Shown here: positions 40,850 to 64,000 of the stretch, in pieces
How positions within the stretch are numbered: position 1 is the stretch's first letter
Layout: every line of letters begins with the position of its first letter
DNA from: a virus
IMG/VR virus record: IMGVR_UViG_3300035645_000269
Length of the DNA stretch: 64,000 nt
Reading direction: 5' to 3' (one strand)
Position numbers and translations under genes: made by a program
The notes under the pieces: model-generated
Databases searched by the model: none
Told to the model about the DNA's origin: nothing
The model's input: the letters and a program-made list of their open reading frames with translations, nothing else

Positions 40850-41151
40850 GTGAGCATACCAAAGGCTATAAAGAAGGATTTGATACTGGAATTAAACAGT
40901 GCATTAAGATACTTGATAGAAATTGCTACTCTAAAGAAATAAATAATGATGAAACAGTACAGAATCAATAAAACGACTACCTTCGTAGAAGATAATTGCA
41001 GCGGAAACAGAGAGAAATACCTCCTTCTTGATTACAAAGTACAAGTTAAATTTGCAGGGATTTGGATAACAGTCAAGTCCTTTCATGATGAAGATGAAGA
41101 ATACGCAAAGAACTGTGCGAATGAACTTCTTGAAAAACTTAACGAAAAGAT

Positions 41152-44961: not shown

Positions 44962-45363
44962 ATGAAATTAGAAGGAAAAATTATTGTGGCACAACCGATA
45001 CAATCGGGTGTCTCAAAAAATGGTAACAACTGGCAAAGACAAGATTTCGTTTTGGAAATTCCCGGCCAATACCCTAAAAAAGTCGCTTTTTCAGTAATGA
45101 ATAGCAATATTCAGAATTTTGGATTAGCAGTCGGGCAAGACGTTGATATTGAAATAGATATTAATGCGAATGAATGGCAAGGAAAATGGTTTAACTCCAT
45201 TACTTGCTGGAAAGCAACACTCCGTAATCCAGGACAGCCTACCGCAGCGCAACAGCCCCAAACTTATTATCAGGGGGCATCATCCACCGCGGCACCCGTA
45301 CAAACTGCCATACCTCAACCGCCAGTGGATTTTGGGGAACAAAAAGACGATTTGCCTTTCTAA
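44962..45363 (+). CDS. DUF3127-like OB-fold protein
   Basis: 133 aa, NGNNWQRQDFVLEIP, Gln/Pro-rich tail. Confidence 0.35.
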   Translation: MKLEGKIIVAQPIQSGVSKNGNNWQRQDFVLEIPGQYPKKVAFSVMNSNIQNFGLAVGQDVDIEIDINANEWQGKWFNSITCWKATLRNPGQPTAAQQPQTYYQGASSTAAPVQTAIPQPPVDFGEQKDDLPF

Positions 45364-45369
45364 AGAAAA

Positions 45370-45400
45370 AGGAGAAGGGAGCATTTCGGCTCCCTTCTTA
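45370..45400. terminator. bidirectional terminator at the junction of convergent modules
   Basis: gaagggagcatttcggctcccttc inverted repeat between the stops of 44962..45363 (+) and 45405..45968 (-). Confidence 0.5.
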
Positions 45401-46700
45401 TTAATTAATGTTCCACCTTTACAATTTCATTATAAACGATTTTGCTTCGTGGGTTATGATTGACTATCGTTTGTTTATACCCCTTTGTCCCCCATCTCCA
45501 CCATAGGAACCTGTGTTTATATATCCGGCTTATCGCACTTGAAAGACTGTCTCTCACTTCATAAGTAAATGTGCTGTCAGGAATATTTGCATAAAAATCC
45601 ACCCATTTATCTGAATAATTGAAACAGCTGTCTTTCAGAACAAATACAATACTGTCTTTAGTGACAACTTTTGTGGTTGTGATATATTCGACTTCTTTTG
45701 GACGCAGATTCAATTCTTTTATTAGTTTTGCATCCGCACTCCGCAGCTCTTTCAATTCTTCTATGTTAAGCCGTAAAACATGGTTTTCAACCACATTTAG
45801 ACTATCCCTAATCTTATATTCTTCAAGCCCAGTACAGAGACTTTTCATATTATCTGAAAGTCGGGCACTTTCCTTCTTCTCTTCCTGCCACAACCGGTAC
45901 ATCAAAAAGGTTGCCGCAAGGAGTAACACAAAGATTACTCCTATACCTATCTTCAATCTCATAATCAATCTGTATATACATTTTTACCAACTTCCGCAAT
46001 AACTACCCATGCACCATTACAGAAACCATATATCTTACCGTCATTCTCCGGCATTTCAGGTATTGTATTAAGTTTTGTTTCATTGGCAGTGGCTTTGCTA
46101 AGAGCTGTTTGAGCTGTACTTTTTGCAGCATCAGCCGTTGTTTGTGCGGTCACGGCCTTTCCATCAGTAACAGCCAACATTCCAGTCAGAGTTTTTTCAT
46201 TGGTTACTCCTGCAAGGAAGGTTTCAATTTCATTGAAGGTGTCAATGGCCGTAGTCGCATCAACAGTACCAACCAATTCATCCAAAGCGGTCTTCACCGC
46301 ATTTATGGACTGTTCCAGTTGGGACTCTGCCAGTTGAGCACGTCCGCTTTCTGCTAAAATATCCGATTTGCTCGCACTGCTGCTACCATCAGAACTTTCC
46401 AAAAATGAAGATGAAATAGGAAGTTCATTACATCCTACCATAACATATTGTCCGGCTATCAACCCGTCGACATTCATATCACAGAACTCTCCAACCCCAA
46501 GTGCTGTTTTGTAAGGTACATAATCCTTTCCATTAGAACTTTTGTACACAACAACTCTGTTGTTTGCTGCATCTCCAAAATTGATGCTAATAGCAAATTT
46601 CCCAGTAGATAACTGTATAGGTTGGCTTTCGTACCAATCCTCTTCTTTAAGAGTAAAATTCAAGTTTGCCATATCTTCTATGTGTTTATATGTTTGTTTC

Positions 46701-47147
46701 CTATATCAACTCCCAACCTTTCCTTACCTCATCCATGTTTGCAGGAACACCATTCTCAACATAACTCATTGCAGCCACCACCGCAATAAGTTGTTCCCGG
46801 TTGTTTCTGTTCAGAATTGTATGACGAGATATGCCTGAACGCTTTTCGACTGTGGTAATATACACTTCAGTATTGTTCTCACATGGCGGTGCCCATCGCA
46901 TAATAACATCTTCAAGTTCATTGGCCGTGCCGTCTTTGTCAGTATCATACTTATTAAGAATATAAGTTTGAAGAGTTTTAAAAGCAGCACGATAACCGTA
47001 TGCCATAGTTTTAAACTGAAAGAAACTTTTATCTGTCTGTGTTGCAGACAACCCCTGCCATTTCGTATTATTTCTCCGTATATTTAACGGATTATTATTC
47101 CGTAGTCCCCGTGTCATTTTTATCCTCCTTTTCTTTTTGTGTTTCAA
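46701..47147 (-). CDS. lysin-like protein (NNPLNIR motif)
   Basis: RGLRNNNPLNIRRNNTKWQGL. Adjacent to the holin paralogue. Confidence 0.35.
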   Translation of the reverse strand: MKHKKKRRIKMTRGLRNNNPLNIRRNNTKWQGLSATQTDKSFFQFKTMAYGYRAAFKTLQTYILNKYDTDKDGTANELEDVIMRWAPPCENNTEVYITTVEKRSGISRHTILNRNNREQLIAVVAAMSYVENGVPANMDEVRKGWELI

Positions 47148-47562
47148 ACAATATTTGTGCGGCCAGTCGTGCTATATCGTCCTTATTCTCAATGATTATA
47201 CTCATGGTCTTTTCCGCTTTCCGAAGCTCGGCCTTTTCCCATGATTTCTCACGTACCGATTTGAACTCACAGAAAACGCAATAAACCGCCCATAACATAG
47301 CGAATACTGGAAATGGAATGACGATGCAACATATAAGGTCAATCATAACCAGTGTCAGAAACGGATTAAAATATTTCTTCGCTTTTGTCGCTGTCATTTT
47401 GTACTTCTTCGAGGTACGAAGTTCCCCACGCTGTTTGGCCTTCTGAATCCCCGAAATAAAATCTATCCCCATTGCGATTATGATAGCTGTCATACTTACC
47501 GCTATCAAAACCAAATGTAAAAACAAATGGTCGTGAATGAATGTTTCAATAATGTCGTTCAT
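47095..47562 (-). CDS. holin-like membrane protein (paralogue of 21561..22031)
   Basis: TM helices and a shared KxxGELRxxKYxxT...VREK block with the other holin. Confidence 0.45.
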   Translation of the reverse strand: MNDIIETFIHDHLFLHLVLIAVSMTAIIIAMGIDFISGIQKAKQRGELRTSKKYKMTATKAKKYFNPFLTLVMIDLICCIVIPFPVFAMLWAVYCVFCEFKSVREKSWEKAELRKAEKTMSIIIENKDDIARLAAQILFETQKEKEDKNDTGTTE

Positions 47563-47855
47563 ATCCTTTTGTGTTTGCGTTTATTATTTTTATTCCAATA
47601 GTAATTTGTTGATAGCATCAATAAAGGCTGGGGAACATAAACTTGCGTATTCCTTAATCATATTACACTCTTCATCGTTATACTCAATTTCTCCATTGGA
47701 GTTGAATATTTTAAATGCGAGGGCATGAGCCTCTATTCCCCTGCCAAGTTGATAAATGATATTGGCAAAATCCTTCTTGTAGTTCTCAACGGAACATCTC
47801 GTCTTATCAATATCAACAAATATCTCAATTCTTTCAAAATTTATCCTTTTCATAA

Positions 47856-49031
47856 TCACTTCCAATCATTATCATTTGAAGCACCGAACATCAGTCCTCT
47901 TCCCAACCTGTCAGAGTTCGGTGACGGATACATAAAATCCACCAACTGCATACAATGGTGCATGGAACCGCCATTCAATGTTTGCTTTGTTCCATTCGCA
48001 TATATCTGAACATTATTATAATTGTCATTTGCATTAACCACGAATATCCTTTGGGTGACGGCAAGACTCAAAAGATAACGGTAGGTTACATTCGATGTTA
48101 TTCTAAATATAACCGTATCAACTGGAAAACCCGAAGTTTCACCGTTATAATCGTATCTTGGCGAATAGCAAGGAACTGTATAATAAGTTTCGTTAGCAGA
48201 GGAAGTCCCGGAAGTCAAAGGTATATAAGTACCGGTTTTATCAGCACCTTTTGTGTACACATAGGCATAGGAGCCGTAAACTACCATAATGCTTCTTTCC
48301 CTTGCGCCAAACACGCCTCTACACCATAAGTCAGAAGTGCAGAAACGTAATGACCGGTTATCCTTAGTACCTTGATGATACATATCACCATCAAACCACA
48401 TTCTTCCATCACTTCCAAAGCTGATTCCTCCAACCGCATCACCAGCAGCATTCACGCAATTCAACCTTGTAAAAGAGCCTGATACACCTTTCAATGTACC
48501 TTCAAAAGTGCTGTCACCTGAAATAACCGCACCAGCCGCATAGAGTTTCCCTGCTATACTCACCTTATATGGCGCATCAGTCGGTGTTGTAGCTCCAACC
48601 CATAACGGATAGTCACCACCAACAAGACCTGCTGCAACCGTTTTATTATCGCCCTTCATTATCAAAAGCTGATTACCCTGCATGAACCGTAGAATAGCAT
48701 TTTGAGCCATGATAAGCGGAGTGTACACTGGCACCAAAGAATTAAACTTCTGCCAATAAGTTGTATTTGTCACCGGAATGGAATCACTGGACGTATGAGT
48801 TTTCAGACATTTATACGCATTAAACGTATTAGCACCGGTAGTCACAATTGCAATATCCAAGTACCGGGTACCGGAAGTCAAAGCCTCGTCATTGCGATAC
48901 TCTATGCCTTTAGCCCATTCGGATTGCCGGAGAATACAGCCTTGCAGCCCGTTTTTCCCCGGTTCCCCATTAGTACCGTCAATTCCATTTTTGGCCTTTC
49001 TTCGTATTAATATATGCCCTTGCGCCTCCAT
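47856..49031 (-). CDS. tail fiber protein with collagen-like N-terminal repeat
   Basis: NGIDGTNGEPGKNGLQG (G-x-x repeats), Gly/Ser/Thr-rich remainder. Confidence 0.45.
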   Translation of the reverse strand: MEAQGHILIRRKAKNGIDGTNGEPGKNGLQGCILRQSEWAKGIEYRNDEALTSGTRYLDIAIVTTGANTFNAYKCLKTHTSSDSIPVTNTTYWQKFNSLVPVYTPLIMAQNAILRFMQGNQLLIMKGDNKTVAAGLVGGDYPLWVGATTPTDAPYKVSIAGKLYAAGAVISGDSTFEGTLKGVSGSFTRLNCVNAAGDAVGGISFGSDGRMWFDGDMYHQGTKDNRSLRFCTSDLWCRGVFGARERSIMVVYGSYAYVYTKGADKTGTYIPLTSGTSSANETYYTVPCYSPRYDYNGETSGFPVDTVIFRITSNVTYRYLLSLAVTQRIFVVNANDNYNNVQIYANGTKQTLNGGSMHHCMQLVDFMYPSPNSDRLGRGLMFGASNDNDWK

Positions 49032-49454
49032 ACCGGATTACTTCAATTTTGCTAATACTTCTTTTGCGATCTCCTTAGCCTTGATACGATAACTCTGATA
49101 ATCAGTGTATTCTTTCAGATATTCGGCACGCTTACCTTCGTCAAGTTCCGAAGCCATATCACGTGCCATTTCCAAGTTGGCGAAAATGGCATCACGTTTA
49201 TTCGCATCATAACGTTCCATGATAATGGCACTTACAATACTGTCATAATCATGTTCCCCTTCAACATCCACGTTTTCACAGACATACTGGTCTTCAACCA
49301 CCACATCTTCCGAACCGGCCTTTTGAACAGCTTCTCTTCTCTCAAAGTCGAAGTAAATGCGTAGCAACGCACCTTCAACTACAAATTCAATACCAGTCGG
49401 CAGTTCTCCTACAAGAGTTCCATAACTTTTCATAAATTACCTCCATTTTTATAA

Positions 49455-50998
49455 TTATTCTTCAAAATAATAAGCACTCTTCCCGTCACCTAACGAACGC
49501 CGCTTGACAATCACATTTTCCACTGGAAAAATCTTCTGACCGTTATTCTCCGCTTCGCGAGCCTGATCCAACACATCTTTCAGATTGTAACAGTTCGTTA
49601 TGAATTTGCTACGTTGTCCGTTCTGTTCAAAAAGAACACAATATCTACCTTCACCTTGCTTTGTCTTCACATTCGTTTCAAAGTCCACCACTGTTATAGG
49701 GACATTGAGAATATCCATCAATCTTGTCTCTTTTACATCGAAGAACTTCTTTCCGTCCTTTGTTCTACCACTCTGTTTGATACCTTTATCTGCAAAACTC
49801 ATATCATTATTTGTTATTGTTCTCCATAAATTCTTACAATCTCCCCACTTACACCAGCCCCAGTATGAAGCTCGTATCTCGCGGTTACGTTTCCGGCTTT
49901 TTATTCGTTTCACCTTTCGGGCAAAGTTCTTTTTCATATTTTTACGCATCCGAACATTATCTTTCGTGAAGCAATAGCCCAAAAAGTTAATCCTTCTTCC
50001 TCTTACTACGTTTTCGCTTTCTATGCTTTTTGTTCCCATTTTTTGTTTCTGTTCCTATCGGAGCAATACAACTGTTTGCTTTAACTACCAACCCAACTTT
50101 TGCACTTTCCCGTTCATACGCACGAATAAGAAACAACGCTTCGGCCTTAGAACGAGCCAGCATAACATTATCATCGCAATATCTATGCAGGCATTTGACA
50201 CGATATTTCTCCTTCATTGTATGATCTATCCGGCTTGCCGCAAAATTCCCGATAGGTTGGCTTGTAAATGCTCCAATCGGAACACCTCTTCTTCCGTTCA
50301 ACTTCATTCTCCAATACGTCAACTAACTCTGTTCCGCTGTCATACGATAAAACAGCTATCTCGATCAATTTAATAAATCGTTCATCTTTGAATTTCCTTC
50401 TCAATGCAGCAACAATAAGCTCATGAAGAATACTTTGATAGAACTTTTTGAAATCAGTCTTTACGAACCATTTGTATTCCGGGTACCGGTGAAGAAAACG
50501 TTTCATTCTCCTTACTCCAAAATGTAATCCCTTTCCCTTGATACACGCACTTGTATCATAAATCAAATTTCTATAAACATCTTCTTCAATCACCCTCATA
50601 ATTGCATGGTGCAATATACGCCACGGGAAATATTTCTGTTTGACAATATCTCGAACCTTTCCTGCATCACTTTTTACTCTCATTACGCTATAATCCGGTG
50701 CCGGAAAATCCAATGTCAGGATCATCAACTGCAAAGCTCGGAGGTCTTCTTCCGGGTGTAGATTATGCCGCCTGATAAAGCGGTTTTTCTTAACCTTCCC
50801 ATCTTGTGCTTCTTTGTCCGCTTCACGTAAATTATTTATCTCTGCTATACGTTCAAGAATATACCCGGCTCTTTTAGATTTCTTTCCACCGTTTGCTTCT
50901 ATCCGTTTATTGTCAGCCTCTATCCTTTCCGCTATAATTCTATCAATTTCATTATGCGATAGACTCTTCCAATCAATATCACTTCTTCCAATATTCAC
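49455..50998 (-). pseudogene. second DGR reverse transcriptase, split across three overlapping frames
   Basis: 50183..50998 has FPWRILHHAIM and ACIKGKG. 49987..50322 has YCDDNVMLA (YxDD). 49455..50039 has INFLGYCF and SYWGWCKWGD. All are collinear with RT-1 motifs but in three frames. Confidence 0.6.
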
Positions 50999-51283
50999 TG
51001 CTGCTTTGTTTTAAAATTTACACCATACTTCCAATTTTGTCTTGTTCAGACTATTTTAATTATTCCGATAACTGCAAGCTGTTTTTACTTGCTTGAATAA
51101 TTCGCCCGGAGCTTTCGAGAACCAACCTACTAACACCGCTTGTTGCCTTTCGCAAATTGGGCAACCTTTCCGCATTCTTGATTTTCTGACATCGTAACCA
51201 ATTGATTACTACGTTGCAACGATATAAATCCTGCAAGGTCATGGCTCGGAGAACTCGCAGATTACTCTACGATAAATAAGTAT

Positions 51284-51391
51284 GGCGAGAGCCGATATTC
51301 GCATTCGAGTTCGACCAATCGTTATTCGAGTTCGCATAAGCGAGGCCGCAATTCGCACCGTTATTCGCATTACCGCCCCAAAGAACCAGCT
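51284..51391 (-). repeat. DGR-2 template repeat (TR2)
   Basis: Minus strand reads agctggttctttggggcggtaatgcgaataacggtgcgaattgcggcctcgcttatgcgaactcgaataacgattggtcgaactcgaatgcgaatatcggctctcgcc. About 75-80% identical to TR1 and adenine-rich. Confidence 0.75.
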
Positions 51392-51514
51392 CTTGTTCCC
51401 CTCTGCCAACCGTCCACGCCTTTCGGCTTTCGTCCCGTTATCCGTTGCCGTAAAACGAGAAGGTGGACGGGTTTTAATTAATTGAAATTCAAAGAACTAA
51501 TATTTCAAAATCTA

Positions 51515-52834
51515 TTATGCAGCCATCAAAGATGCACCGCTAACAAATGTTAAATTCCCAAAATACGCAAGGCGAGAGCCGATACCCGCATACGAGAGCG
51601 ACCAATCGTTAGACGAGGTCGCACAAGCGAGGCCGCAATTCGCACCGTCATACGCAAGACCGCCCCAAAGAACCAGCTGCCCAGTAGTGTTTGCCCATGA
51701 ATAATCAGCCCAATAAGAAGTGCTGTTTCCACCAATCTTTTTCGGGAAAATATCAAAATGCTCCCCAAGAATTATTTCCTGCACTTGACCGGAAGCTGTC
51801 TGACGGGTAGCTTGTCTGTATTCACCATTTGGATGCGCAGCTAATTCAGCAGTAGTCGGTAAACGGTTTCCTTTGTAAATGAAAATTTCCGTTCCACTTT
51901 GAGCACTATTGTTGGAACTACCGCAAAATACTCCTTGCAGAAATTCCCACTGCCACCCATAAGGATCTTCTATACCCATCATGTTCACCCGTGAACAATC
52001 CACTCCAGTATTACTTCCATTCACCACAGAAATAGCTATTTTGCCCCAATTGTCACCGAGACTCTTTGTTGCGCCAGTTTGCAATGCTGCCGCAGCAGCC
52101 CACAAGTCTTTACTGGAGCTACCACCCACACCATAACCAAGTTTGGCTTGAATATTGGTATCTCCGTACTGGGACAGCCCCAACATCATAATAAGCTTTC
52201 TCTGATCGTAATCGGTCAGTCCCCATTCCTTACCGTTCACTTGTGCAGCATTCCAAAATGCGTTGATTGTCTTGCTGCCTGCCGGTGCAACTCCTGAACG
52301 TGAAACAAGTGCGCTACCTGACATGGAGCCTTTGTATGCACCGATACAGTTATACATTCCACCATTTGCCCCACCAATAAACTCACCGCCAATAGGTAGC
52401 ATCGAGAGCCATAAGACTGGTACACCACTCACACTGTCAGTCTGTACACGATAATACAAACGTGGCCCTATCCACATCACATGCCCTTTGGTTTCATCCA
52501 CCGCAGTACCATCAGCAAACACCGCACTATTGGTAGGGGACATTTTAGCAGCCCTTCCATCATTCGTTACGAGATAACGGCCACAATACAACTTGTATTC
52601 TGTCCATGCGGCTGTATTACCTATCACACCATAGTTCGTGCTACTTTGGGTTGATTGTTTGATTGGAATCCCCCAAGCCACCTGCCTCAACATTTGTTCG
52701 TCACCATTATTAATAGCATTCATGAAGTTTTCCACGGTAATGCGTCTGACACTACCACCAACTTCCACCAATACTGTATTGGAACGCAGAATGGAGGTCA
52801 CCAATGTTTCATTTCCTAATCCTTTAGTTGCCAT
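51515..52834 (-). CDS. DGR-2 target protein with C-terminal VR
   Basis: 439 aa. C-terminus ...QLVLWGGLAYDGANCGLACATSSNDWSLSYAGIGSRLAY is encoded by VR3. Confidence 0.7.
   Translation of the reverse strand: MATKGLGNETLVTSILRSNTVLVEVGGSVRRITVENFMNAINNGDEQMLRQVAWGIPIKQSTQSSTNYGVIGNTAAWTEYKLYCGRYLVTNDGRAAKMSPTNSAVFADGTAVDETKGHVMWIGPRLYYRVQTDSVSGVPVLWLSMLPIGGEFIGGANGGMYNCIGAYKGSMSGSALVSRSGVAPAGSKTINAFWNAAQVNGKEWGLTDYDQRKLIMMLGLSQYGDTNIQAKLGYGVGGSSSKDLWAAAAALQTGATKSLGDNWGKIAISVVNGSNTGVDCSRVNMMGIEDPYGWQWEFLQGVFCGSSNNSAQSGTEIFIYKGNRLPTTAELAAHPNGEYRQATRQTASGQVQEIILGEHFDIFPKKIGGNSTSYWADYSWANTTGQLVLWGGLAYDGANCGLACATSSNDWSLSYAGIGSRLAYFGNLTFVSGASLMAA
51560..51667 (-). repeat. DGR-2 variable repeat (VR3)
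   Basis: Identical to TR2 over about 108 nt except about 12 positions, all at TR2 adenines (aat to ctt, gaataac to gtatgac, ttatgcgaactcgaataac to ttgtgcgacctcgtctaac, and so on). Confidence 0.8.
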
Positions 52835-52854
52835 AATATTATTTTGTTTTTATG

Positions 52855-53877: not shown

Positions 53878-54095
53878 ATTCCCAACCTCCTTCTGATATA
53901 ATTTGATTCATGCTTGTATTAGTATAAACGATACCGTCCAACAACAGTATTCTATCTTCCAGTTCTCCATCAAGAGAAGGCAGGCACATTACCTCCTTTT
54001 CATTCAAGATGATGGATTCTCCCTTTACCAAGTGCCCCAACAACAGAACCCCGGCATCCAAAGCCTTTTCCTTATTTGCTACAACATACCTCATA

Positions 54096-55301
54096 TCAAT
54101 TATTTATATATATGTTCCCGTTACTGTCCGTATATTCATTTGTCCCATCAGTCAATACAGAGAAAGCCTTTTTTTGCTCGGCCTTAATGTACACGTCCAA
54201 CCAATCGTCAAGATAAGTTTCACCAATACCGGTTCCATCCAACATTATCACAGTTTTTTCCCCCTCCTGCCATTGTACCCCGGTCTTATTTGCACTGTCC
54301 GTAAACCATACCATGCGGATAATCGGTGCCGGTATCGGCACAATTTCTCCATTCCACTGTACCATAGCTATATTCCTATGCAGGATTTCATCAGGATTGA
54401 TGGAAGCCTGACTTGCCGGTATGCACGTAAATTTTGGATAAACACGATTGACGGAGAATTGCTGTCTTGCAACCTCCTTTCCACCAACCTTCACCAACAG
54501 CAAGTAATCCCCCTTCTCGACCAAACGCAAGTCCATTATCAGGCTGGTTAAGGACAAAGCCACTATTTCATGGTTTGCGGTAGTCAGCATTGTTTGACTT
54601 GATATGCTGTTCACCTGATAAAGTTCAATTGTATATCCGGTAGTTATTTTATTCACTCCCTTTGTTACCATAAGTGGAATGGTGCGCTCGTATGAATTTT
54701 CATCCAAAGCTGCATTCCTATTGGCCGTAGATGCGGAAATCAAATTGTTGGCTACCTTGTAATCATACAACAAAAGCTTGTCAAGAAATGGATTGTACTG
54801 GATTATCTGACTATCCCCAATAGACAAACCGTAGGTATCTTCACTCTTATCTACCGTTGTCAACATGATAGAGTCAGTCTTAACGGGAATATTCACCCCA
54901 AGCCGGGTATCAGCTATCAGACCTTCAAAATACAACTCAAAACTTTCACCCGGAGCCACATTTCTGCTTATGGTAATGGCACCGCGTGTATCTCCAACCG
55001 TATCTATACTGTACTTCCCATTCCATGAACTGATTGCAGAAATATTCTCTCCATTAGCAAACCAGTTCATTTCTGCCAACAAAGAATTAACATAAGGCAT
55101 ATCCCAGCTACCGTCAGCGGCATTCGCTATGACTTCCGGTAAAATCACCAGTGGAGTAACCCCACGGTCAGGATCATATTCATTTGCCACCGGATTATAG
55201 ACCTGATTGGCCGGACTGTTCGGTGTCATTATCTTCAAGCTTACTGCAATCGTAAGCGGTTGAAACTCTTTTCTGATTCTTTTCTTTTCACTCTCTATCA
55301 T
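54096..55301 (-). CDS. tail/baseplate-associated protein
   Basis: 401 aa Thr/Ser/Gly-rich ORF between the Tal-like gene and the DGR target. Synteny only. Confidence 0.3.
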   Translation of the reverse strand: MIESEKKRIRKEFQPLTIAVSLKIMTPNSPANQVYNPVANEYDPDRGVTPLVILPEVIANAADGSWDMPYVNSLLAEMNWFANGENISAISSWNGKYSIDTVGDTRGAITISRNVAPGESFELYFEGLIADTRLGVNIPVKTDSIMLTTVDKSEDTYGLSIGDSQIIQYNPFLDKLLLYDYKVANNLISASTANRNAALDENSYERTIPLMVTKGVNKITTGYTIELYQVNSISSQTMLTTANHEIVALSLTSLIMDLRLVEKGDYLLLVKVGGKEVARQQFSVNRVYPKFTCIPASQASINPDEILHRNIAMVQWNGEIVPIPAPIIRMVWFTDSANKTGVQWQEGEKTVIMLDGTGIGETYLDDWLDVYIKAEQKKAFSVLTDGTNEYTDSNGNIYINN

Positions 55302-58195
55302 ATCGTCACAATTGCTTCTACTGATGCAGTATCATTTGTTGCCGTTATGGTAAACAAGGTACTTACCACTGTTACTGAATTATTTCCTAAATCACTAATT
55401 TCCTTTGTGTTATGTATCGTTATTGAACCGTTGAAATCCTTATGCTTGATATTCCAAGCTTCATCATCGGCGGTATCTCCACTATCCCTTCGGATAGCCC
55501 ATTGTCTAACTGTGTCTGTAATATCCTCCCAACCTTTAAAGACCTTGCAAGTAATTTCCATTGATTCACCATAAGCAAGAAAATTGTCACCTTGCGTATC
55601 AATCTCAATGCGTACCGGTGCATCTATCTGTAACTGTTCGATTGTGCCGGTCATATAAATGTTATTCAGATAAGCAGAATAACCGGTCATATCCAACCCG
55701 AAGATGTTGAGATTGCTCAAATCCCCATCCTGCATTGCAACCATACTCTTTGTAAACTCCCAGTCATTTACCCCTACCAAGAAACGGCGGTATGTCCTCG
55801 TCTCATAAGCGGAAGTCTGGCGTTCCTTGTTTGTAAAGTTGCCATAAGCGACAAAATGCAAAGCCTCACACGGATGGAAAGAATATTGCCAACGATCAGA
55901 AACACCACGAAGCACATAGCGAAACCTTTTGTTTGTTCCGGCATCCAATATTTCTGTAATACGAAAATAGATTGTACAGAAACCGGCAAACATACGGTTG
56001 CCACGGCTATCATCTATATCAGATACCGCATTATTCCCCGGCGTTTCATAGTCATGGAAATACCCCATGCAAATATCATCCACAGCCACAGCACCTATTT
56101 CACCGTCTTGTAATTTCAAACTTATTGTCCCGGAACGTAGCAAGTTACCATCAGCATCATAATCAGGCTCAACACTCTCTATAATTCCAGCACCGGGAGA
56201 ACGCCATTTGTCACCAAGCACAATTTCAGCACGGTTAAAACGCAATTCCGGCACCTCTAAAAACCTGCGTAACGTGAGGCTTTCCATATACCCACGTCCC
56301 ATGCTGTCTATTTTCGCCCCAAAGCCGGTCAAACCCTCTGCAAAACCGCTTGCACCAAAGATAGCACCGGCTAAGAAGCCGATAAGCCCAGCTGCCGTAT
56401 CATTGTGGGTGCGCGAAAGAAAAAGCTGATTGCCCAGTGAACGGATGATAGACTGTATCTGTTGGGTATTCAAGCCGCCGGTTCCCTGCCCACCACCTGC
56501 AATAGAGTCTATCTGATTTTGGATTTTTTCAAGCGATCCAACAGCCTTTTCCTCCCGAAGTGTCATAGTGTACTTCGGTATCATATCTTCTCCCTCTTTG
56601 ATAATAAGGGTATCAATAATGATGCTGCCTTCAATACCAAGATCGCTATCAGTGAATAGCATCAAGTCCCCTTCTTTCAAAGTATCATGTATGCTTGCTT
56701 CCCCCCTTGCAACAGCCTCATCATGTTGGCGTGCCATGAAAATATCATCCACCTTCGGTTCATACGAATAGCGCACATAGTCATTCTTTGCAAGATATTT
56801 TTTCGCGGTAGCAAGCAACCGTTGTGAAGCGGCCTGAATATAAACGTCCGGCATATCAATATAAAGCAGGACAAACTTGTCACCGGACTTTATATTGTAA
56901 TCCTTGTATGGGAAATATAATTTCAGACTTTCATCATATACACGGTTACAAGTCAGCACATATTTATTGCCCTTCTTCTCACATTTGGTTATTTCAAAAT
57001 CCCGGCCACCACACATGCCGTTTTTCATGCTAATGGTGGCTGTTTCAGAAGTCAGGTAATCGTTTATATTGAAACCAACATCTTTTAGCGTTATTGTAAA
57101 AGGTGGGACATCTTCACCTTCCTTCAGGCTATCCATTGTACCATCATCTGTCAGTTGTTCGGCATCAGCCACTTCGTCAAGATTGCCATTATCCCCGGCA
57201 TCCAATGATACATAAATACCTGCATCTTTCAACTGTTCGGCGGTCATACCTTCCATTGAAGGACATATTTCTTCCAAATCACCGGTACCGTCAAAATAAA
57301 CACTCCCTTCCCGAATGCCAAGCACAGCAATATTCTTGCTGTCAATATATGGATCAAGCGTTGTCTTAGGAAAATCAGGTAACATCAGATTTTCCACGGC
57401 CATGTTATTCGGCAAATAATTGGTAAGAGAACTGTTTGAGAGCTTATTATAATACCGGTTAGGCATATTTCTTGTACTACCGTATGCACGCAATCGCGTA
57501 ATAATCTGTTGATCCGCATCGGCTGTACGTTGAATTTCGTACAAACCGTTTCCACGTCCATACTTGAAAATATTGCCCACAGCAATACCGGCAGTACCGA
57601 TTGTTATTGTTCGGCCACGAATAACAAAGTTCGCACCAAATTTTGAATTGAACAACTCCAATGCACCCCATACCTTTATATTGTTCACATCAATGTTTAC
57701 ATTGGTAGTGCTCACATATTCAGGGTGTACGGCAACCGTCCATTTTTGTGCTCCAGTATATATACGGTCAAGATTTACTTGAACACGGTCTGCCAAATCT
57801 TGTATAGACGAAGCGAAGAAACTGAACTTAGGCAAAGAAGTGAAGTGTATCTGATTATCACTTTTCACATAATCAAGAAAATCACATCGCGTCAATTCAT
57901 CTCCCGGCCAGTTGAACTTTACGTTATCATAGACAAACGCTTCTCCCGAAGTTTTTCTTGCCGCCTTTTTTAATGCCGTAGGATCATAGTTTATCTCAAA
58001 CTTCTCACCACGGTACATAACATAGTCACCTATCTCAAAAAGAATGGGTACGGCACTTTTCAGAGTGCTTGTCACAAAACATGCACCCATCCATGTACCA
58101 TTATACTCCAAACCTTTCAGTGTACAACGTACCGTATTGCCAGTTTTATCATAAACCTTCCATGCCATACAGCTATACTTTTTCAACCAATGCAA
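55298..58195 (-). CDS. tail tip protein (Tal-like), paralogue of 13750..17775
   Basis: 965 aa. KYGRGNGLYEIQRT block shared with the other Tal-like gene. Confidence 0.5.
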   Translation of the reverse strand: MHWLKKYSCMAWKVYDKTGNTVRCTLKGLEYNGTWMGACFVTSTLKSAVPILFEIGDYVMYRGEKFEINYDPTALKKAARKTSGEAFVYDNVKFNWPGDELTRCDFLDYVKSDNQIHFTSLPKFSFFASSIQDLADRVQVNLDRIYTGAQKWTVAVHPEYVSTTNVNIDVNNIKVWGALELFNSKFGANFVIRGRTITIGTAGIAVGNIFKYGRGNGLYEIQRTADADQQIITRLRAYGSTRNMPNRYYNKLSNSSLTNYLPNNMAVENLMLPDFPKTTLDPYIDSKNIAVLGIREGSVYFDGTGDLEEICPSMEGMTAEQLKDAGIYVSLDAGDNGNLDEVADAEQLTDDGTMDSLKEGEDVPPFTITLKDVGFNINDYLTSETATISMKNGMCGGRDFEITKCEKKGNKYVLTCNRVYDESLKLYFPYKDYNIKSGDKFVLLYIDMPDVYIQAASQRLLATAKKYLAKNDYVRYSYEPKVDDIFMARQHDEAVARGEASIHDTLKEGDLMLFTDSDLGIEGSIIIDTLIIKEGEDMIPKYTMTLREEKAVGSLEKIQNQIDSIAGGGQGTGGLNTQQIQSIIRSLGNQLFLSRTHNDTAAGLIGFLAGAIFGASGFAEGLTGFGAKIDSMGRGYMESLTLRRFLEVPELRFNRAEIVLGDKWRSPGAGIIESVEPDYDADGNLLRSGTISLKLQDGEIGAVAVDDICMGYFHDYETPGNNAVSDIDDSRGNRMFAGFCTIYFRITEILDAGTNKRFRYVLRGVSDRWQYSFHPCEALHFVAYGNFTNKERQTSAYETRTYRRFLVGVNDWEFTKSMVAMQDGDLSNLNIFGLDMTGYSAYLNNIYMTGTIEQLQIDAPVRIEIDTQGDNFLAYGESMEITCKVFKGWEDITDTVRQWAIRRDSGDTADDEAWNIKHKDFNGSITIHNTKEISDLGNNSVTVVSTLFTITATNDTASVEAIVTI

Positions 58196-58691
58196 CTATC
58201 TTTGTCGGTTCCGCAACACTATACGAGGGGATTATTTGAGTTCGAGGATCAGTTACTCTGAATTTTACCGGGAAGGTCAAGACTTCATCCATATTGGACT
58301 TATTAAATTCAAAATCTCCAACCTCCAGTAAGTAAAGTCCTTGCCGCCCGATACCCGTGTGCGAGTTATATATTTTCAAGGTGGCACCGTCACCATTTTC
58401 TCCCGTGAGATAGTTTTGAAAGGCCATAATTTTATCGTATGCAGTACCCAAATCTCCCTTATAGCACATCTCGGCTTCCAAGTCGTATGCCTTTAATAGC
58501 AGCTTATCGGGTATGTAAGTATCTTCACCGTCTTCATCCGGCCAATCCCGTTTGGGTAAATCTTTCGTTTCCCCACCCGGCTTGAACGGAAATTCTGTGC
58601 ACACAATTCCAAAATGCGCCAAGCTGTCTTTGACTGGAGCATTCTCGGTAGTTTTCTGCATCAAAATAGAATACGGTTCGTTCATATACAT
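58173..58691 (-). CDS. distal tail protein (Dit-like)
   Basis: 172 aa. Position upstream of the Tal-like gene and resemblance to the C part of 12548..13765. Confidence 0.4.
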   Translation of the reverse strand: MYMNEPYSILMQKTTENAPVKDSLAHFGIVCTEFPFKPGGETKDLPKRDWPDEDGEDTYIPDKLLLKAYDLEAEMCYKGDLGTAYDKIMAFQNYLTGENGDGATLKIYNSHTGIGRQGLYLLEVGDFEFNKSNMDEVLTFPVKFRVTDPRTQIIPSYSVAEPTKIVALVEKV

Positions 58692-58953
58692 ATATTAAAA
58701 AAGAGCTTGCCGCAGAGATATTTAGTCTCCACAACAAGCTCTATGGCCTTATACTTTAATCTTATTTCAACGCAAATATAATTGTATTTTCTATATAATC
58801 ATAGAAAATAATGCCATAAAAGCATTTTTTAGTAGATTATTATACTCAACCCCTAACTTGCTTCCACGTGTATGTTGAAAAACATAAAAAATATCATTTG
58901 TCATAATTTTATTTATTAATACTTTTGTATTTAATTATAAAAGAGGTTATTAT

Positions 58954-59160
58954 ATGTTAGGAGTTTTAGTTTGGATAGTAGTGATTCTTCTGATCTGCTT
59001 TAGTGTTACTGGGTGGCATTGGATTATATTTTATGTAGTCATACTACCATTTTCAACATGGCTATTTTTCTTCTATGTCGATTTTCCCGAAAATCGTTTT
59101 AATATAAAAAGATTCAAGAATGACATAAAATATTTATTAAATAAATTACATAAGAAATGA
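58954..59160 (+). CDS. small two-TM membrane protein in the AT-rich insertion
   Basis: VWIVVILLICFSV and IIFYVVILPFSTWLFFFYV hydrophobic helices. Very AT-rich flank. Confidence 0.3.
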   Translation: MLGVLVWIVVILLICFSVTGWHWIIFYVVILPFSTWLFFFYVDFPENRFNIKRFKNDIKYLLNKLHKK

Positions 59161-59738
59161 AAAAAAATATATTATTCTTTTTGCTTTATACTATTATGTG
59201 TTTTACTTCCTATTCGCAGAACAAACAGATTAGTTATTCATCTGTAAATGGGCTTGTAACTTACGACAATGGTTCAGGTACGAAAGCCGATATTGGTGCA
59301 AAATTATATATTATACCATGTAAATATTTCAAACAAGATATTGAATTAAAAAATGACTCTATACAAATGGGGTATGAATCTTTGTTACAATACATCAAAT
59401 GGAAAGAACTTGTTGGGCAAGAACAAGCAATAGCCAAATTAAAAGAATATGACTTTTACATTTCCGCTGAAGAACAAATTAGGAGAGAAGGTGAATTAGC
59501 TATATGTTTGGTTGATATTCTCAAATCAAATAAAGTAAAATATAGTTGTACGATTGACAATACGGGAAAATATAAAACTACAATCCCTTATGGTAATTAT
59601 TATTTTATATTTAAATCCGCAAATAAAAGCGTAGATAAGTCTATACTTAATGGTCGTGGAACATATAATATTTATAAAATCAAATTATATTCTAAATATA
59701 AAGATATTAGTACGTCTTTTAACGCTGACTACCATTAA
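59157..59738 (+). CDS. secreted protein (signal peptide) in the AT-rich insertion
   Basis: N-terminus MKKNILFFLLYTIMCFTSYSQ is signal-peptide-like. Asn/Lys/Tyr-rich, low-GC codons. Confidence 0.35.
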   Translation: MKKNILFFLLYTIMCFTSYSQNKQISYSSVNGLVTYDNGSGTKADIGAKLYIIPCKYFKQDIELKNDSIQMGYESLLQYIKWKELVGQEQAIAKLKEYDFYISAEEQIRREGELAICLVDILKSNKVKYSCTIDNTGKYKTTIPYGNYYFIFKSANKSVDKSILNGRGTYNIYKIKLYSKYKDISTSFNADYH

Positions 59739-60292
59739 ATATTGAGCTAACATAATCTGGCTAATGTTTTCGCGTATAAATTATAATTAGGCTGGCTCCA
59801 AAGTCAGCCCAATTTTATTTTGTGCATTTTGCCACTCTTAGCCAAAAGTATTCAGCTTTCGAGATATTTGTTAAGCGCATCTCTCAATTTACGAATTTCA
59901 TCATTTGAAGATACTATTTCGGATATTTCATCTTCACATGCGCAATCGCACATTGAAATAAGCATACCTTTTATGCCACCTCCCTTTTCTATTTTAGCAT
60001 CTTTTGAGAACATTTCTATCGGGAGAAACTCGACTACCCCTCCGCTGTCAAAACTTACCGAAGCCGCAGCGTTTTTCTTTTCCCATTCCTCCACCTCACT
60101 ACATGACATATAAGCCGTTTGACAATTTTCTAATTCTGGCTTCTTTTGCTCTATCATATCTAAATAGAACTGTATAGCCATTAAACCTTTCTCTGTTACC
60201 GTATTGTCTTTTGCAATAAGACCATTTACTTTGAATGTTTCTACAACGCATTCTTTGTTGCTCATAAATTCTACTAATTCCATATTGATTTA

Positions 60293-61018
60293 TTATTTAT
60301 AGTGGATAAAATTTGTATTTTCTTGCTGTAATTGGAACACGGCAGGATAGTTCCTTTTTGAATATTGTTTTCTAAGGTATGATATTAAATTATCGAAGTT
60401 GGTAATGAATCCCTCGTTGATTAAATCAGCCACCTTCTTTTCAAGCTGCCACAGTTCGCGTTGTTTGCTTTCATCACCCTGCTTGTTGCGAAGCATTTTC
60501 TCATGTGAGTTAAACACAACCCAATTCAATGCTTCCCCAACCTTTTGCATTGCTTTCGGCATAAACTCTTTAGGAACTATCTTCTGAACGGCAGAGCCAA
60601 GTTCTTTGTAAGCATCCCCGGCATCGTTTCGATAGCGAATCATTTCATCGTACACAAACCGTAATACTTTGACTTCAAAAGCCGGATTTATCCACATAGC
60701 AAATTTGATAAACAGAAGCGGATTCATCCAAACTTTATCGGGTGTTTTGCCTTCTTTCGTATTTCTACCCTTAACTTTTATAAGTAGTTGATTTTCACCA
60801 ATGAGCATTTTTGCTCTATGGCTTTCATCCTCTGCAAGAGCTTTCAAAAACTCTGATGTATTATCAGATTCTAAGAATTTACTCATTTGCCTTCTCGGAT
60901 TCCCTTCTACATTATTCCACTGCCGAAGCAATTCAGTTCCGTCAAAATAACCATCACTCGTGCGCTGAACCACAGAAAAACTATCAATGTATCGCACCAT
61001 TTCTTGATTTGTTTTCAT
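60293..61018 (-). CDS. KilA-N domain protein
   Basis: WMNPLLFIKFAMWINPAFEVKV resembles the KilA-N C-terminal block. Confidence 0.5.
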   Translation of the reverse strand: MKTNQEMVRYIDSFSVVQRTSDGYFDGTELLRQWNNVEGNPRRQMSKFLESDNTSEFLKALAEDESHRAKMLIGENQLLIKVKGRNTKEGKTPDKVWMNPLLFIKFAMWINPAFEVKVLRFVYDEMIRYRNDAGDAYKELGSAVQKIVPKEFMPKAMQKVGEALNWVVFNSHEKMLRNKQGDESKQRELWQLEKKVADLINEGFITNFDNLISYLRKQYSKRNYPAVFQLQQENTNFIHYK

Positions 61019-61027
61019 ATTATAAAT

Positions 61028-61399
61028 TTAGATTTTACTTAACAAAGATTTCTCCCTTTTACGGGAAAGTTCACGCTTGTTTTCTTCAAGTTCTTCCCAA
61101 CGATTAATAATTTTGGCTCGTAAGTTTGCATCATAACCACTTGCGAGAAGAAGACAATCCTTTTTGGTGAGAATGTAACAAGACACTTCTTTGCTTCCAC
61201 CGTTTGGCATAGGTTGAGGTCTTGATGATAATTCAAAACTGAATTGTCGTCTATCTTCCAGTTGTTCAAGGATATTGCGAATATCTCGCATTACATTTGA
61301 ATGAGTTTTGCCCGTAATTTCTGCAATCTGTAAGGAGGTCATTGTTCTTTTTTTACCTTTTCCCTCATCAATAGGTATTAACTGATTAAAATTTTCCAT
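61028..61399 (-). CDS. Rha-family phage regulatory protein
   Basis: TMTSLQIAEITGKTHSNVMRDIRNIL matches the Rha N-terminal block. Confidence 0.55.
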   Translation of the reverse strand: MENFNQLIPIDEGKGKKRTMTSLQIAEITGKTHSNVMRDIRNILEQLEDRRQFSFELSSRPQPMPNGGSKEVSCYILTKKDCLLLASGYDANLRAKIINRWEELEENKRELSRKREKSLLSKI

Positions 61400-61464
61400 A
61401 TCTTTGCACTATAAAGTTAATGTTTTCCCCATCAGCGGCTCGGACATCTCCGCTTTTGGGGAAT

Positions 61465-61520
61465 TATTTTGTCCGATCTTGTAGTAGGCAGGGAATCGAA
61501 CCCCAATACGCCATTACTCG
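61465..61520 (-). other. tRNA 3'-end-like fragment (T-arm GGGGTTCGATTCCCT plus acceptor strand), possible att remnant
   Basis: Minus strand reads ...agtaggtacgagtaatggcgtattggggttcgattccctgcctacta. I could not find a D-arm or anticodon arm upstream. Confidence 0.3.
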
Positions 61521-61938
61521 TACCTACTGAACCCTCCTTAATATAATAGTCACGCTTGACATAATAATAAAGAGAAAGGGCAAATCCCGATGAAGCCTAA
61601 TGTGGTTGCCTGCCTCAAAGAGAATGCCCTATAATATTTTATTCCAGTTCATGACAACCACGAAATGAACCTAACAGCATTGTTTCCGACACAAATATAG
61701 AAACGATATTTTCACCATACAACAACCTAAAAATCAATAAAATAAATTCGGTAAACATCAGTAACAAACGGTAAGAATCGGTAAATAAAAACAGTTATAT
61801 TTACTCTAAAATTTAGACATAATATAAATAATGCACGTATCTACCGTATTGTGACGAGATATTGGTTACAATTTATGATACCGTTCAAATAATTTAGAAA
61901 TATAAAAGACTGTAAATAAATATATTGCAGAAAACGTG

Positions 61939-62451
61939 TTAGTCCCCATTCTTTTTATATCTTACCATAACATTGCCTTCGGATTCTATTTTACAGTTTC
62001 CACCATGAACATATACATAAACTTTAGCCACATCGCTTTGCCTTACATGTAGTTTAGCCCGATCATATACACTCACAAAAACTTTGGCGCAATCTTCCAC
62101 TTCAAGAGTCAATTCACTATCATGGCGCAAATGGAGAGTAGCGGCTGTAAATTTACCGAAAGAAAGCTTGCCTGAACATTTACCGTTCAGTACATATACA
62201 CCATTGTTGCCTCCGGTCACTGGTTCATCAACAAAAATAAGGTTTTGATGAAGCAGGCTCCGGTCAAAATTACCTTTTATATATTCCACCGTCGGATAAT
62301 CGTGTTCAATACAAAAATCAATGCCCCGTATATACATTCCGATCAATTCTTGCTGGCTTTTATTGTTTTGCCAGTCACCTTGCCATTGTGTGCAGAGGCC
62401 ATACGATACGGCATGACCTCTCAATTCACTATTCAATCTGTTCATAATCAT
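61939..62451 (-). CDS. conserved tail-associated protein (paralogue of 12039..12542)
   Basis: Motif sharing described under 12039..12542. Immediately follows the second tape measure gene. Confidence 0.5.
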   Translation of the reverse strand: MIMNRLNSELRGHAVSYGLCTQWQGDWQNNKSQQELIGMYIRGIDFCIEHDYPTVEYIKGNFDRSLLHQNLIFVDEPVTGGNNGVYVLNGKCSGKLSFGKFTAATLHLRHDSELTLEVEDCAKVFVSVYDRAKLHVRQSDVAKVYVYVHGGNCKIESEGNVMVRYKKNGD

Positions 62452-64000
62452 ATATTAAACTTGTTTACACCGTTTATATTCCTATGTAGTATATCCCTGA
62501 TTTCTTCCACAAATTCCACATTCTTTGCTGTATTTATCTGTATCATTGTCAGTTGTTGTAATTGTGCTTGTGCTATTACATTATAGGCCGGGAACAATTC
62601 TTCAACCAATCTGCGCACATACTCCCGTTTAACACTCACGTCAGCCCGGATTGCATTTATATAAGAAGCCAAAAGGTTAGCGGTATTTTCAGTAACATTC
62701 TGTATGCCTTTAGATAAACCACTTCCACTGTCTTCTTCCTCTTCCTTCATACTGATACCATATTTCTTTTCCATATAGTTATTCAGTTTGTCAAGCATGG
62801 AATAGTAATCATCGGTTTTCTCACTTACCCCCATTAGATAGTCCGCAATACTTTCCAACTCCTTTTCGTCAAGAGAGAAATCCTTGCCGAAATAACCACT
62901 CATTCCATCCTCACCAAAAAGCATCTTTTGAAGCTGTTGCATGGCCGGTTCCAAAATACTTATTTTGAGAATGGAGTTCATAACATCACCCATAATGTCG
63001 GCAACCTTATTTTTGAAAGCTTCGGCACCATCCTCGCCTTTCTGCCATGCCTCATACAAGGCATCTCCCAGCTGTGAAGCCCAGTCTTTCAAATTAATGC
63101 CATAAAGAGATTCAGCCGTTTCTTCGGCAAAATCCTTTATTTGCTGTTTCATCTCCGCAATCTGATTCTCATAATCAGCCACCTTGCTATCATCCGTCTT
63201 CTTCTTGTCAATTTCGGCTTGCCGTTGTTTCTCCAATTCTGAAAGTTGTTCTTGCATCAAGGCACGTTGATACCCGTATGCACCACCTTCATCGTATGCC
63301 GAAACACGTTTTTGAAGTTTTTCCGCTTCCTGCTTATATTTCTGCAAAGACATCAAATCGAAGATGTTGATCTTTCCCTTATTGCGTATTGCACCAATCT
63401 GATTATTTAATTGATTCAACCGGGTACGGTCATTTTCTGCATCTACAAGTTTTAGTTCCGTGCCACTGCCCAAAAAACGTTCAAGAATACCGTCAATTTG
63501 TTCGTATATATATTGCAACTGTTGAGCACGAAGTTTACTCTTTTCAATAGCCTTATCGAGTTTCTTATCATGCGCTTGTGCTATCTTCCCAATCCAATTT
63601 ACAGCTTCACCAGCAGCGGCAGCAATACCACCAACGATTCCACCTTTGGCGAATCCCTGCCCGATATTGCTTATAGAAGACATGGCATCCTGCACATTAC
63701 CCATCGTGTCGGCCATACCCTCATTGCCCAAAGCATCGAACATGGAAGACATCTGTCCTGCAAAATTGCCGACAAGATCAGCACTTTCAGCGGCACTTTC
63801 TCCCAACCGTCCGATTTTCTTTTCCAGTTTGTCGCTGTCTTTTTCAGAAGTAAAAAGTTCTTTTACATTCTTCGCTAAGGTTTTGAATGGATTTACAGCC
63901 AACTGTGCATCTTGCAACTGGGGGATGGCTTTTATCAATTTATCCAACAAAGAATAAGCACCCTTAACATTTTCAATACTACCATCATCTTTCGTAAAAA
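62448..64000 (-). CDS. second tape measure protein (C-terminal part; gene continues beyond the window)
   Basis: Coiled-coil rich (QQLQYIYEQIDG, KQRQAEIDKKKTDD, AEMKQQIKDFAEE), followed by the 12039-type paralogue exactly as in the + strand module. Confidence 0.6.
   Translation of the reverse strand, partial: FTKDDGSIENVKGAYSLLDKLIKAIPQLQDAQLAVNPFKTLAKNVKELFTSEKDSDKLEKKIGRLGESAAESADLVGNFAGQMSSMFDALGNEGMADTMGNVQDAMSSISNIGQGFAKGGIVGGIAAAAGEAVNWIGKIAQAHDKKLDKAIEKSKLRAQQLQYIYEQIDGILERFLGSGTELKLVDAENDRTRLNQLNNQIGAIRNKGKINIFDLMSLQKYKQEAEKLQKRVSAYDEGGAYGYQRALMQEQLSELEKQRQAEIDKKKTDDSKVADYENQIAEMKQQIKDFAEETAESLYGINLKDWASQLGDALYEAWQKGEDGAEAFKNKVADIMGDVMNSILKISILEPAMQQLQKMLFGEDGMSGYFGKDFSLDEKELESIADYLMGVSEKTDDYYSMLDKLNNYMEKKYGISMKEEEEDSGSGLSKGIQNVTENTANLLASYINAIRADVSVKREYVRRLVEELFPAYNVIAQAQLQQLTMIQINTAKNVEFVEEIRDILHRNINGVNKFNI

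Follow-up and report, generated by a model that had tools for sequence, protein, structure and literature searches.

The 64,000-nt stretch of IMG/VR virus record IMGVR_UViG_3300035645_000269 that we analysed (hereafter, the window) is in all likelihood a piece of Bacteroidaceae chromosome in which two temperate phages lie head-to-tail in the 3′ end of a single tRNA-Asp(GTC) gene. The left-hand element, named prophage A here, is represented by its late half, and the right-hand element is a copy of LoVEphage, also known as Quimbyvirus; that these are two separate prophages we hold with high confidence. A first-pass annotation had described the genes to the right of 45370 as a second, inverted copy of a module with tail-tip, diversity-generating retroelement (DGR) and lysis genes, and had proposed two related prophages or a mosaic. 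Our re-examination of its claims agrees on two prophages, but restricts the word "related" to the segment that runs from the C-terminus of the tape measure protein (TMP) through the tail tip and the DGR to the putative holin. Across the window the G+C content drops from 0.47 in the left part to 0.37–0.43 in the right part, and the two elements and their shared site are placed as follows.

1–23398, plus strand: late half of prophage A, which is of siphovirus type, comes from Bacteroidaceae and measures ~50 kb in all; G+C content ~0.47
23399–23416, minus strand: shared attachment core CGCGGTGCGTACGGGACT, the reverse complement of the last 17–18 nt of tRNA-Asp(GTC)
23399–64000, unstranded: LoVEphage prophage, from its attL end to partway in the TMP gene, 99–100% identical to LoVEphage records

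LoVEphage (MW660583; Van Espen et al. 2021, PMC8525569) is the same phage as 'Quimbyvirus' of the proposed 'Quimbyviridae' (Benler et al. 2021, PMC8008677), and both align to the same prophage of B. dorei CP011531. It has been described as a circular 71.5-kb temperate phage (PMC8525569) and was induced from B. thetaiotaomicron, P. dorei and P. vulgatus (PMC12629997). In megablast searches, window positions 39001–64000 were 99.8% identical to MW660583 over 93% of the query, which satisfies the species threshold of at least 95%. Positions 23399–25000 matched six LoVEphage-type records, including MW660583, OY731444, PQ571265 and PQ571302, with 99–100% identity, and all of these alignments begin at 23399. 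In the circular LoVEphage genome this position corresponds to the gap between the integrase and CI-type repressor genes; the core borders the repressor side and attP lies between the two genes.

Prophage A, on the other hand, gave no close (megablast-level) match for its part 1–23398 among the 50,697 phage records that served as the reference set, and no description of it was found in the literature searched. Its left half, with the integrase, early genes, small and large terminase subunits (TerS, TerL) and portal, falls outside the window. The contig stretches read to the left (L014, which lies just left of the window, to L016) continue the prophage with a 755-aa protein, an SPP1-type portal, TerL, TerS and a methylase, and a walk through IMG/VR contigs further left reached the early genes, a 435-aa tyrosine integrase and the left junction, for a total of ~50 kb. 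The integrase carries Arm-DNA-bind_5, SAM_5 and Phage_integrase domains in the related contig L057. The prophage is widespread: a protein identical to its last gene product occurs in 10,711 assembly blocks, and one identical to the product of another of its open reading frames (ORFs) in 7,490. The NCBI labels are multispecies Bacteroidales for its capsid and multispecies Bacteroidaceae for its reverse transcriptase (RT) and last gene. This prevalence, together with the DGR, led us to consider the Mu-like transposable Hankyphage as its identity; the candidate was rejected, as prophage A always lies at tRNA-Asp and has a tyrosine integrase. The nearest catalogued relatives of its head and tail genes are Porphyromonas phages phage005a/b_ATCC49417 (BK068088, PP754928). 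Its major capsid protein is 58.6% identical at the amino acid level to that of Porphyromonas phage phage005, but DNA identity to phage005a/b is a patchy 67%, without near-identity, and the host genus is another one.

The evidence that carries the tandem arrangement comes from the join between the two elements, at which prophage A closes with two features.

22590–23294, plus strand: last gene of prophage A, encoding 234 aa, read directly from the sequence
~23323–23371: hairpin terminator after the last gene, also read directly from the sequence

Prophage A ends in the same way in 10 of 10 other contigs, where an intact tRNA-Asp(GTC) follows on the minus strand, starting 105 nt past the last-gene stop codon, in host neighbourhoods that vary. 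The window is identical to prophage A contigs up to 23416; past the core CGCGGTGCGTACGGGACT, LoVEphage DNA replaces the remainder of the tRNA. A tRNA scan of the window found none, because just an 18-nt tRNA fragment is present. From the LoVEphage side, attL with the same tRNA-Asp 3′ fragment was seen in all 10 other lysogens compared, with ten different host flanks, and integration of Quimbyvirus in tRNA-Asp has been published (PMC8008677). The core at 23399–23416 is a hybrid of the attR of prophage A and the attL of LoVEphage.

The first-pass annotation had suggested looking beyond the window for integrase and att sites. For prophage A both the integrase and attL were seen, in related contigs rather than in this genome. 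At its left junction the flank passes through GCGGTGCGTACGG into CTCTAAG in four contigs (L057, L058, L061, L062); the core of prophage A is thus this 13-nt sequence, nested inside the 17–18 nt LoVEphage core. These related contigs show GCGGTGCGTACGG as a direct repeat at both prophage ends, attL and attR, along with the prophage's own tyrosine integrase. The opposite tandem order was found in IMG/VR contig 3300045988_116788, which reads LoVEphage integrase end, core, prophage A integrase end; it is 98.9% identical to LoVEphage, and its prophage A part is 95–96% identical to the window and L014. A second contig of this order (L114) has only 107 nt of LoVEphage-like sequence and gives partial support. 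The order of the window is met again in a 1073-nt metagenome contig (L115), which starts with the junction: 8 nt of prophage A flank, the core and then LoVEphage.

In this arrangement, the late half of prophage A ends with tail tip, DGR, lysis genes, terminator and att core. LoVEphage begins at the core with its repressor and runs right through its early genes to 45363; its late arm is read leftward toward 45363, with lysis, DGR, tail tip and TMP in that order. The two are independent site-specific prophages: each has a three-domain tyrosine integrase of its own, with nested cores, as well as its own repressor or early region, tail module, DGR and lysis genes. LoVEphage most likely arrived second, into the copy of tRNA-Asp regenerated at the attR of prophage A. 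Reverse arrival, with prophage A entering the 17-nt attL remnant of LoVEphage, is less probable, given that this remnant lacks the tRNA-side arm. Because the phage-side arms of both elements survive at the hybrid site, either prophage should be able to excise alone, provided that the integrases follow the lambda-type mechanism.

Several points weigh against tandem residence as we describe it. A 38-nt junction in the window order is absent from species-representative genomes, IMG/VR and JGI metagenome contigs, and just the one short contig L115 backs that order. The right end of LoVEphage, with integrase, attR and intact tRNA-Asp, lies beyond the window and is unseen in this genome. Finally, entry of prophage A into the LoVEphage attL remnant would give the same map, so the structure does not prove which phage came first. 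The absence of the 38-mer from three large collections would also fit a join made during assembly, by which phages residing at two tRNA-Asp genes, or in two strains, were merged via the shared tRNA 3′ end; some genomes indeed have two tRNA-Asp genes (L006, L023). We consider such a chimera very unlikely. The two contexts share 13–18 nt only, which is shorter than the k-mers that assemblers normally use, the junction recurs at the start of an independent contig (L115), and the reverse tandem order occurs independently in IMG/VR, so co-occupation of the site is real.

Further elements may use this site. In contig L038 (IMGVR_UViG_3300045988_138049; region 10800–11937), which has an 82% relative of the last gene of prophage A, the core GCGGTGCGTACGGGA gives way to unrelated DNA that encodes a 141-aa protein, with no continuation of tRNA-Asp. 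We considered this DNA as an integrase or attP region, but the sequence is neither. It may represent a third element stacked at the same site.

The mirrored gene order of the window could also be taken to mean that one phage genome, or a mosaic, carries an internal inverted duplication of the tail-tip, DGR and lysis module. The features of LoVEphage up to the start of its late arm bear on this.

23489–23827, minus strand: CI-type repressor (MW660583 annotation)
23829–24599, minus strand: S24/LexA-like protein (MW660583 annotation; Pfam Peptidase_S24 on identical genes)
26210–45363, plus strand: early and metabolic arm, with exonuclease, RecT, methyltransferases, PAPS reductase, RtcB and single-strand DNA-binding protein (MW660583 and BI-TP1 annotation)
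45373–45398, unstranded: GC-rich hairpin at which the early and late arms of LoVEphage converge
45405–47562, minus strand: lysis end, with a DUF6549 protein, a 235-aa protein, the endolysin (46701–47147, phrog_873) and the putative holin (47095–47562)

The two modules had been said to meet at a bidirectional terminator at about 45.38 kb. A hairpin does lie between convergent genes at 45373–45398, but the modules do not meet there: the left one stops at 23294, and the early genes of LoVEphage fill the 22 kb in between. The hairpin is the convergence point inside LoVEphage and not a border between two phages, and the leftward genes from 45405 on are the LoVEphage late arm. For Quimbyvirus, convergent arms, the tRNA-Asp site, an RT in three overlapping frames and a distal second variable repeat (VR) near methyltransferases and a tRNA ligase have all been published (PMC8008677). 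The mirrored order results from LoVEphage's own convergent architecture and its orientation at the site. The observation that no head genes accompany the right-hand module within the window was correct and is explained by the window edge, since in MW660583 tail and neck genes come just after the 5.5-kb TMP gene, and then capsid, a cluster of tRNAs, terminase and portal. About 31 kb more of LoVEphage, and then an intact tRNA-Asp, are expected to the right of the window.

A single genome with a duplicated module would account for the mirrored order and for six to eight homologous protein pairs. We regard it as extremely unlikely, and the mosaic reading is wrong. The DNA from 23399 onward belongs to a complete, independently circular and inducible 71.5-kb phage (PMC12629997), and 1–23398 occurs alone in thousands of assemblies, ending at tRNA-Asp. 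The proteins of the pairs are 23–33% identical, the G+C content of the two parts differs, and a combined ~120 kb would probably exceed the genome size of either capsid. A recent duplication or inversion was likewise rejected: blastn of left against right detected template repeat (TR) against TR as the sole DNA similarity (80% over 106 nt), so the right-hand module is no second copy of the left-hand one.

To define the homologous pairs, all window ORFs were compared with each other by blastp, and the PHROG family matches of both members were compared. Outside the DGR genes the members are the following.

7833–12029, plus strand: TMP of prophage A (phrog_21917, phrog_9959)
62448–64000, minus strand: C-terminal part of the LoVEphage TMP, ~517 aa of a 5.5-kb gene cut by the window end
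12039–12542, plus strand: post-TMP 167-aa protein of prophage A (phrog_10156), homologue of 61939–62451
61939–62451, minus strand: post-TMP 170-aa protein of LoVEphage, homologue of 12039–12542
12548–13765, plus strand: distal tail protein (Dit) of prophage A with a lectin-like insertion (Laminin_G_3 and Sipho_tail)
58173–58691, minus strand: minimal Dit of LoVEphage (172 aa), by predicted fold only
13750–17775, plus strand: Tal-like tail-tip protein of prophage A (phrog_19846 and others, common to 55298–58195)
55298–58195, minus strand: Tal-like protein of LoVEphage (blastp and PHROG)
21188–21559, plus strand: 123-aa protein of prophage A (phrog_11557), homologue of 49038–49433
21561–22031, plus strand: holin-like protein of prophage A (phrog_20732, common to 47095–47562)

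Five of the six pairs listed by the first-pass annotation were recovered by blastp and have common PHROG families. The TMP pair is 28% identical over 236 aa (E-value 1e-17; phrog_21917 and phrog_9959), the post-TMP pair 33% over 165 aa (1e-30; phrog_10156), the Tal-like pair 23.5% over 540 aa (4e-20; phrog_19846) and the putative holin pair 30% over 98 aa (3e-7; phrog_20732). In the DGR, the targets 18115–19530 and 51515–52834 are 30% identical over the C-terminal 182 aa (5e-16; phrog_5302), and the RT 20176–21210 is 30–37% identical to three ORFs in 49455–50998 (phrog_1423). Two further pairs had not been listed before: 19574–19918 with the C-terminal half of 49455–50039 (phrog_19665), and 21188–21559 with 49038–49433 (phrog_11557), each of the latter directly downstream of its own RT. 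The mirrored gene order itself was seen as a single anti-diagonal tblastx chain from 11145/63569 to 21081/49887. In this protein-level self-comparison of the window the similarities persist under alignment, with the exception of the Dit pair, and, judged from these alignments, the homology of the mirrored genes is genuine, well above what chance would give, and ancient. The family common to the two putative holins, phrog_20732, has no assigned function; both genes overlap or abut an endolysin gene, and the LoVEphage protein 47095–47562 also matches the holin family phrog_199 (E-value 9e-5).

The remaining listed pair, Dit 12548–13765 and 58173–58691, received no support from sequence (blastp E-value 3, hhalign E-value 0.055). 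The left protein matches Pfam Laminin_G_3 and Sipho_tail (Sipho_tail E-value 1.4e-5, above the curated cutoff), and for the right one no sequence family was matched in PHROG or Pfam. An AlphaFold model of the 172-aa right candidate reached a pLDDT of 85.8, and its top Foldseek matches in the PDB were Dit chains (E-values 7e-5 to 2e-3), namely of the monocin tip, Bxb1, 80alpha and SPP1 (Dit 2x8k). Both genes lie immediately upstream of their own Tal gene, between TMP and Tal. The Dit pair is thus probably homologous, by predicted fold and position only.

Outside this segment the two phages have little in common. When the proteins of prophage A for head, portal, TerL, TerS and methylase were compared by tblastn with the remainder of LoVEphage, nothing matched, with one weak exception, a 25% match of the 755-aa protein to the LoVEphage minor capsid protein. 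The integrases are 26% identical. The shared part is a cassette from the TMP C-terminus over tail tip and DGR to the holin, which fits the usual modular evolution of tailed phages. Although the putative holins are homologous, the adjoining endolysins differ in family, GH108 with PG_binding_3 (22018–22593) versus the phrog_873 type (46701–47147), a difference that is a non-orthologous replacement within an otherwise syntenic cassette. The similarity of tail tip, DGR and holin is old homology of a cassette widespread in Bacteroidota siphoviruses and not a recent copy.

Could the cassette have been swapped by recombination during co-residence, as a horizontal module and not by descent from a common ancestral phage? 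The confinement of homology to TMP C-terminus–holin, with unrelated capsid protein, portal and TerL and different endolysin families, would be in line with such an exchange, and both phages do co-reside at one site in both orders. At 23–33% identity, however, any swap would be ancient; many other phages have these PHROG families too, so neither of the two need be the donor, and no recombinant junction of raised identity is visible. We find an exchange during co-residence unlikely.

Each of the two phages carries a DGR cassette, with the following components.

18115–19530, plus strand: prophage A DGR target, tail-fibre-type (phrog_5302), with VR 19401–19513
19574–19918, plus strand: prophage A DGR accessory ORF, 114 aa (phrog_19665), homologous to the LoVEphage RT C-terminus
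19946–20058, plus strand: prophage A TR, forming a repeat pair with the VR
20176–21210, plus strand: prophage A DGR RT, a single ORF of 344 aa (phrog_1423, E-value 1.6e-127; Pfam RVT_1 on identical genes)
51515–52834, minus strand: LoVEphage tail-side DGR target (phrog_5302), with VR1 51561–51678
51274–51391, minus strand: LoVEphage TR, from repeat comparison
49455–50998, minus strand: LoVEphage DGR RT in three frames, with a C-terminal phrog_19665 domain; frames read directly
37179–37763, plus strand: second, distal LoVEphage DGR target, 194 aa (phrog_11581), with VR2 37570–37682 as an inverted repeat with the TR

In both cassettes the mismatches between TR and VR within the repeat cores fall at adenines of the TR. 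Across 11 genomes, the VR of prophage A varies at 25 TR-adenine columns and 2 others, and the TR core is invariant. For LoVEphage, VR1 and VR2 show 12–17 differences, nearly all at adenines, between genomes that are 99.6–100% identical in the RT region, and the TR is identical or nearly so across those genomes. Change of the VRs at adenines next to a constant TR shows that both DGRs are active. The two tail-side targets belong to phrog_5302 ('tail protein'), and C-type lectin domains have been reported for the target proteins of Quimbyvirus (PMC8008677). Its second distal VR was already known (PMC8008677), and distal second VRs were noted elsewhere as well (PMC12629997). In the window the distal target lies on the strand opposite to the TR, 13.6 kb away, among methyltransferase and PAPS-reductase genes. 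We also looked for cross-templating between the two DGRs and found no trace of it: outside the adenines, each VR agrees with the TR of its own phage, and ~20 non-adenine positions set it apart from the TR of the other phage.

The RT of LoVEphage differs from that of prophage A in being split. All three pieces match phrog_1423, the piece in frame +1 has the RYCDD motif, and both frame shifts are +1, at the purine-rich motifs AAGAAGAGG and AAGAGGAAGAAGG. The interruptions are identical in three other genomes. Among relatives, site 1 is kept at 60–99% identity (P0035, P0040, P0037, P0072, P0118) and site 2 down to 47–49% identity (P0049, P0070), a conservation that goes beyond the published description (PMC8008677). 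In the window, an ATG in frame +1 stands a few codons ahead of the conserved motif in the downstream piece at each of the two sites, and at site 1 two relatives (P0005, P0034) have the same ATG and are called from that point. Unsplit relatives at 41–53% identity (P0002, P0007–P0018) have no polybasic insert, and rare variants are in frame at site 1 (P0004, P0003). Two programmed frameshifts were proposed for the Quimbyvirus RT (PMC8008677). Because of the internal ATGs, the conserved interruptions and the unsplit relatives, an RT of three subunits may be an alternative to this. A dead pseudogene was rejected, as genomes with the interrupted RT have VRs that have since diverged at adenines, and the interruptions are conserved in relatives of 47–84% identity.

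The two cassettes are also built differently around the phrog_19665 domain (~100 aa), which in prophage A stands alone between target gene and TR, and in LoVEphage (49455–49770) and the unsplit relatives is joined to the C-terminal end of the RT. The 114-aa ORF of prophage A was modelled by AlphaFold as a small beta-barrel (pLDDT 80); its PDB matches are weak (E-values of at least 0.18), and most of them are to OB folds, among them SSB, PriB and the B subunits of AB5 toxins. No accessory of the Avd type, a four-helix bundle, was found in the cassettes, the 114-aa ORF having no Pfam match and a mostly beta model. To our knowledge, Avd is not universal among DGRs. Compared with the reference DGR, that of Bordetella phage BPP-1 (Mtd/Avd/TR/Brt), both systems share the C-terminal VR in a tail-fibre-type target, the TR upstream of the RT and adenine-specific changes. 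They differ in that the accessory is not Avd-like, with its domain stand-alone or RT-fused, and in that LoVEphage must change frame twice to read its RT and has one more target, which is non-structural.

The other features of the window belong to one or the other phage.

42–2237, minus strand: small opposite-strand ORF island, G+C content 0.41, between the portal-side genes and the scaffold/capsid genes of prophage A
3714–4817, plus strand: major capsid protein of prophage A (its identical counterpart in L014 matches Pfam Phage_cap_E)
22018–22593, plus strand: GH108 endolysin of prophage A (Pfam Glyco_hydro_108 and PG_binding_3)
59157–61399, unstranded: block of KilA-N and Rha/antirepressor-type genes, and others, within the LoVEphage tail module

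The island at 42–2237 breaks the late operon of prophage A. The block at 59157–61399, with genes on mixed strands and a G+C content of 0.33–0.36, sits between the post-TMP gene and Dit; it is without counterpart in prophage A, and BI-TP1 has different genes at that position. In the methyltransferase/radical-SAM part of the early arm, window 39001–45000 is ~1.7 kb shorter than MW660583 35437–43500, and PV4-TP1 carries an IS256-type transposase in the region matched by window 39001–63803. The early arm is therefore the plastic part of LoVEphage.

The LoVEphage copy of the window is like the published phage in its tRNA-Asp integration, convergent arms, three-frame RT and two VRs, one tail-side and one distal near methyltransferases and RtcB. 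It differs in its VR sequences, in a few early-region indels, and in that its attL adjoins a prophage and not host DNA; the VR differences from the reference are expected because the DGR is active. As in tandem lysogeny at one tRNA attB, two phages share one tRNA 3′ end and each regenerates the tRNA. Polylysogeny is common in Bacteroidota isolates (PMC12629997). The literature searched gave no description of these two phages paired at one site, with one core nested in the other and with either order of occupancy. The biology is that of ordinary tandem polylysogeny, by one known and one uncatalogued, very common phage. Tandem residence at tRNA-Asp could conceivably serve as an arena for swaps of host-range cassettes, DGR included, between phage lineages, and might also let one DGR occasionally act on the 80%-identical repeats of the other, although we think this quite improbable.

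The case shows how adjacent prophages can mimic an inverted duplication, and how the two can be told apart. It fixes the att cores for two of the most prevalent Bacteroidaceae prophages, 13 nt within 17–18 nt of tRNA-Asp, and shows that one site is contested or shared by the two phages, in either order. It also draws attention to prophage A, with identical proteins in more than 7,000 assembly blocks, an active DGR and no close match among the phage records. These findings matter for the calling of prophage boundaries, for work on induction in polylysogens and for the engineering of host range with DGR phages.

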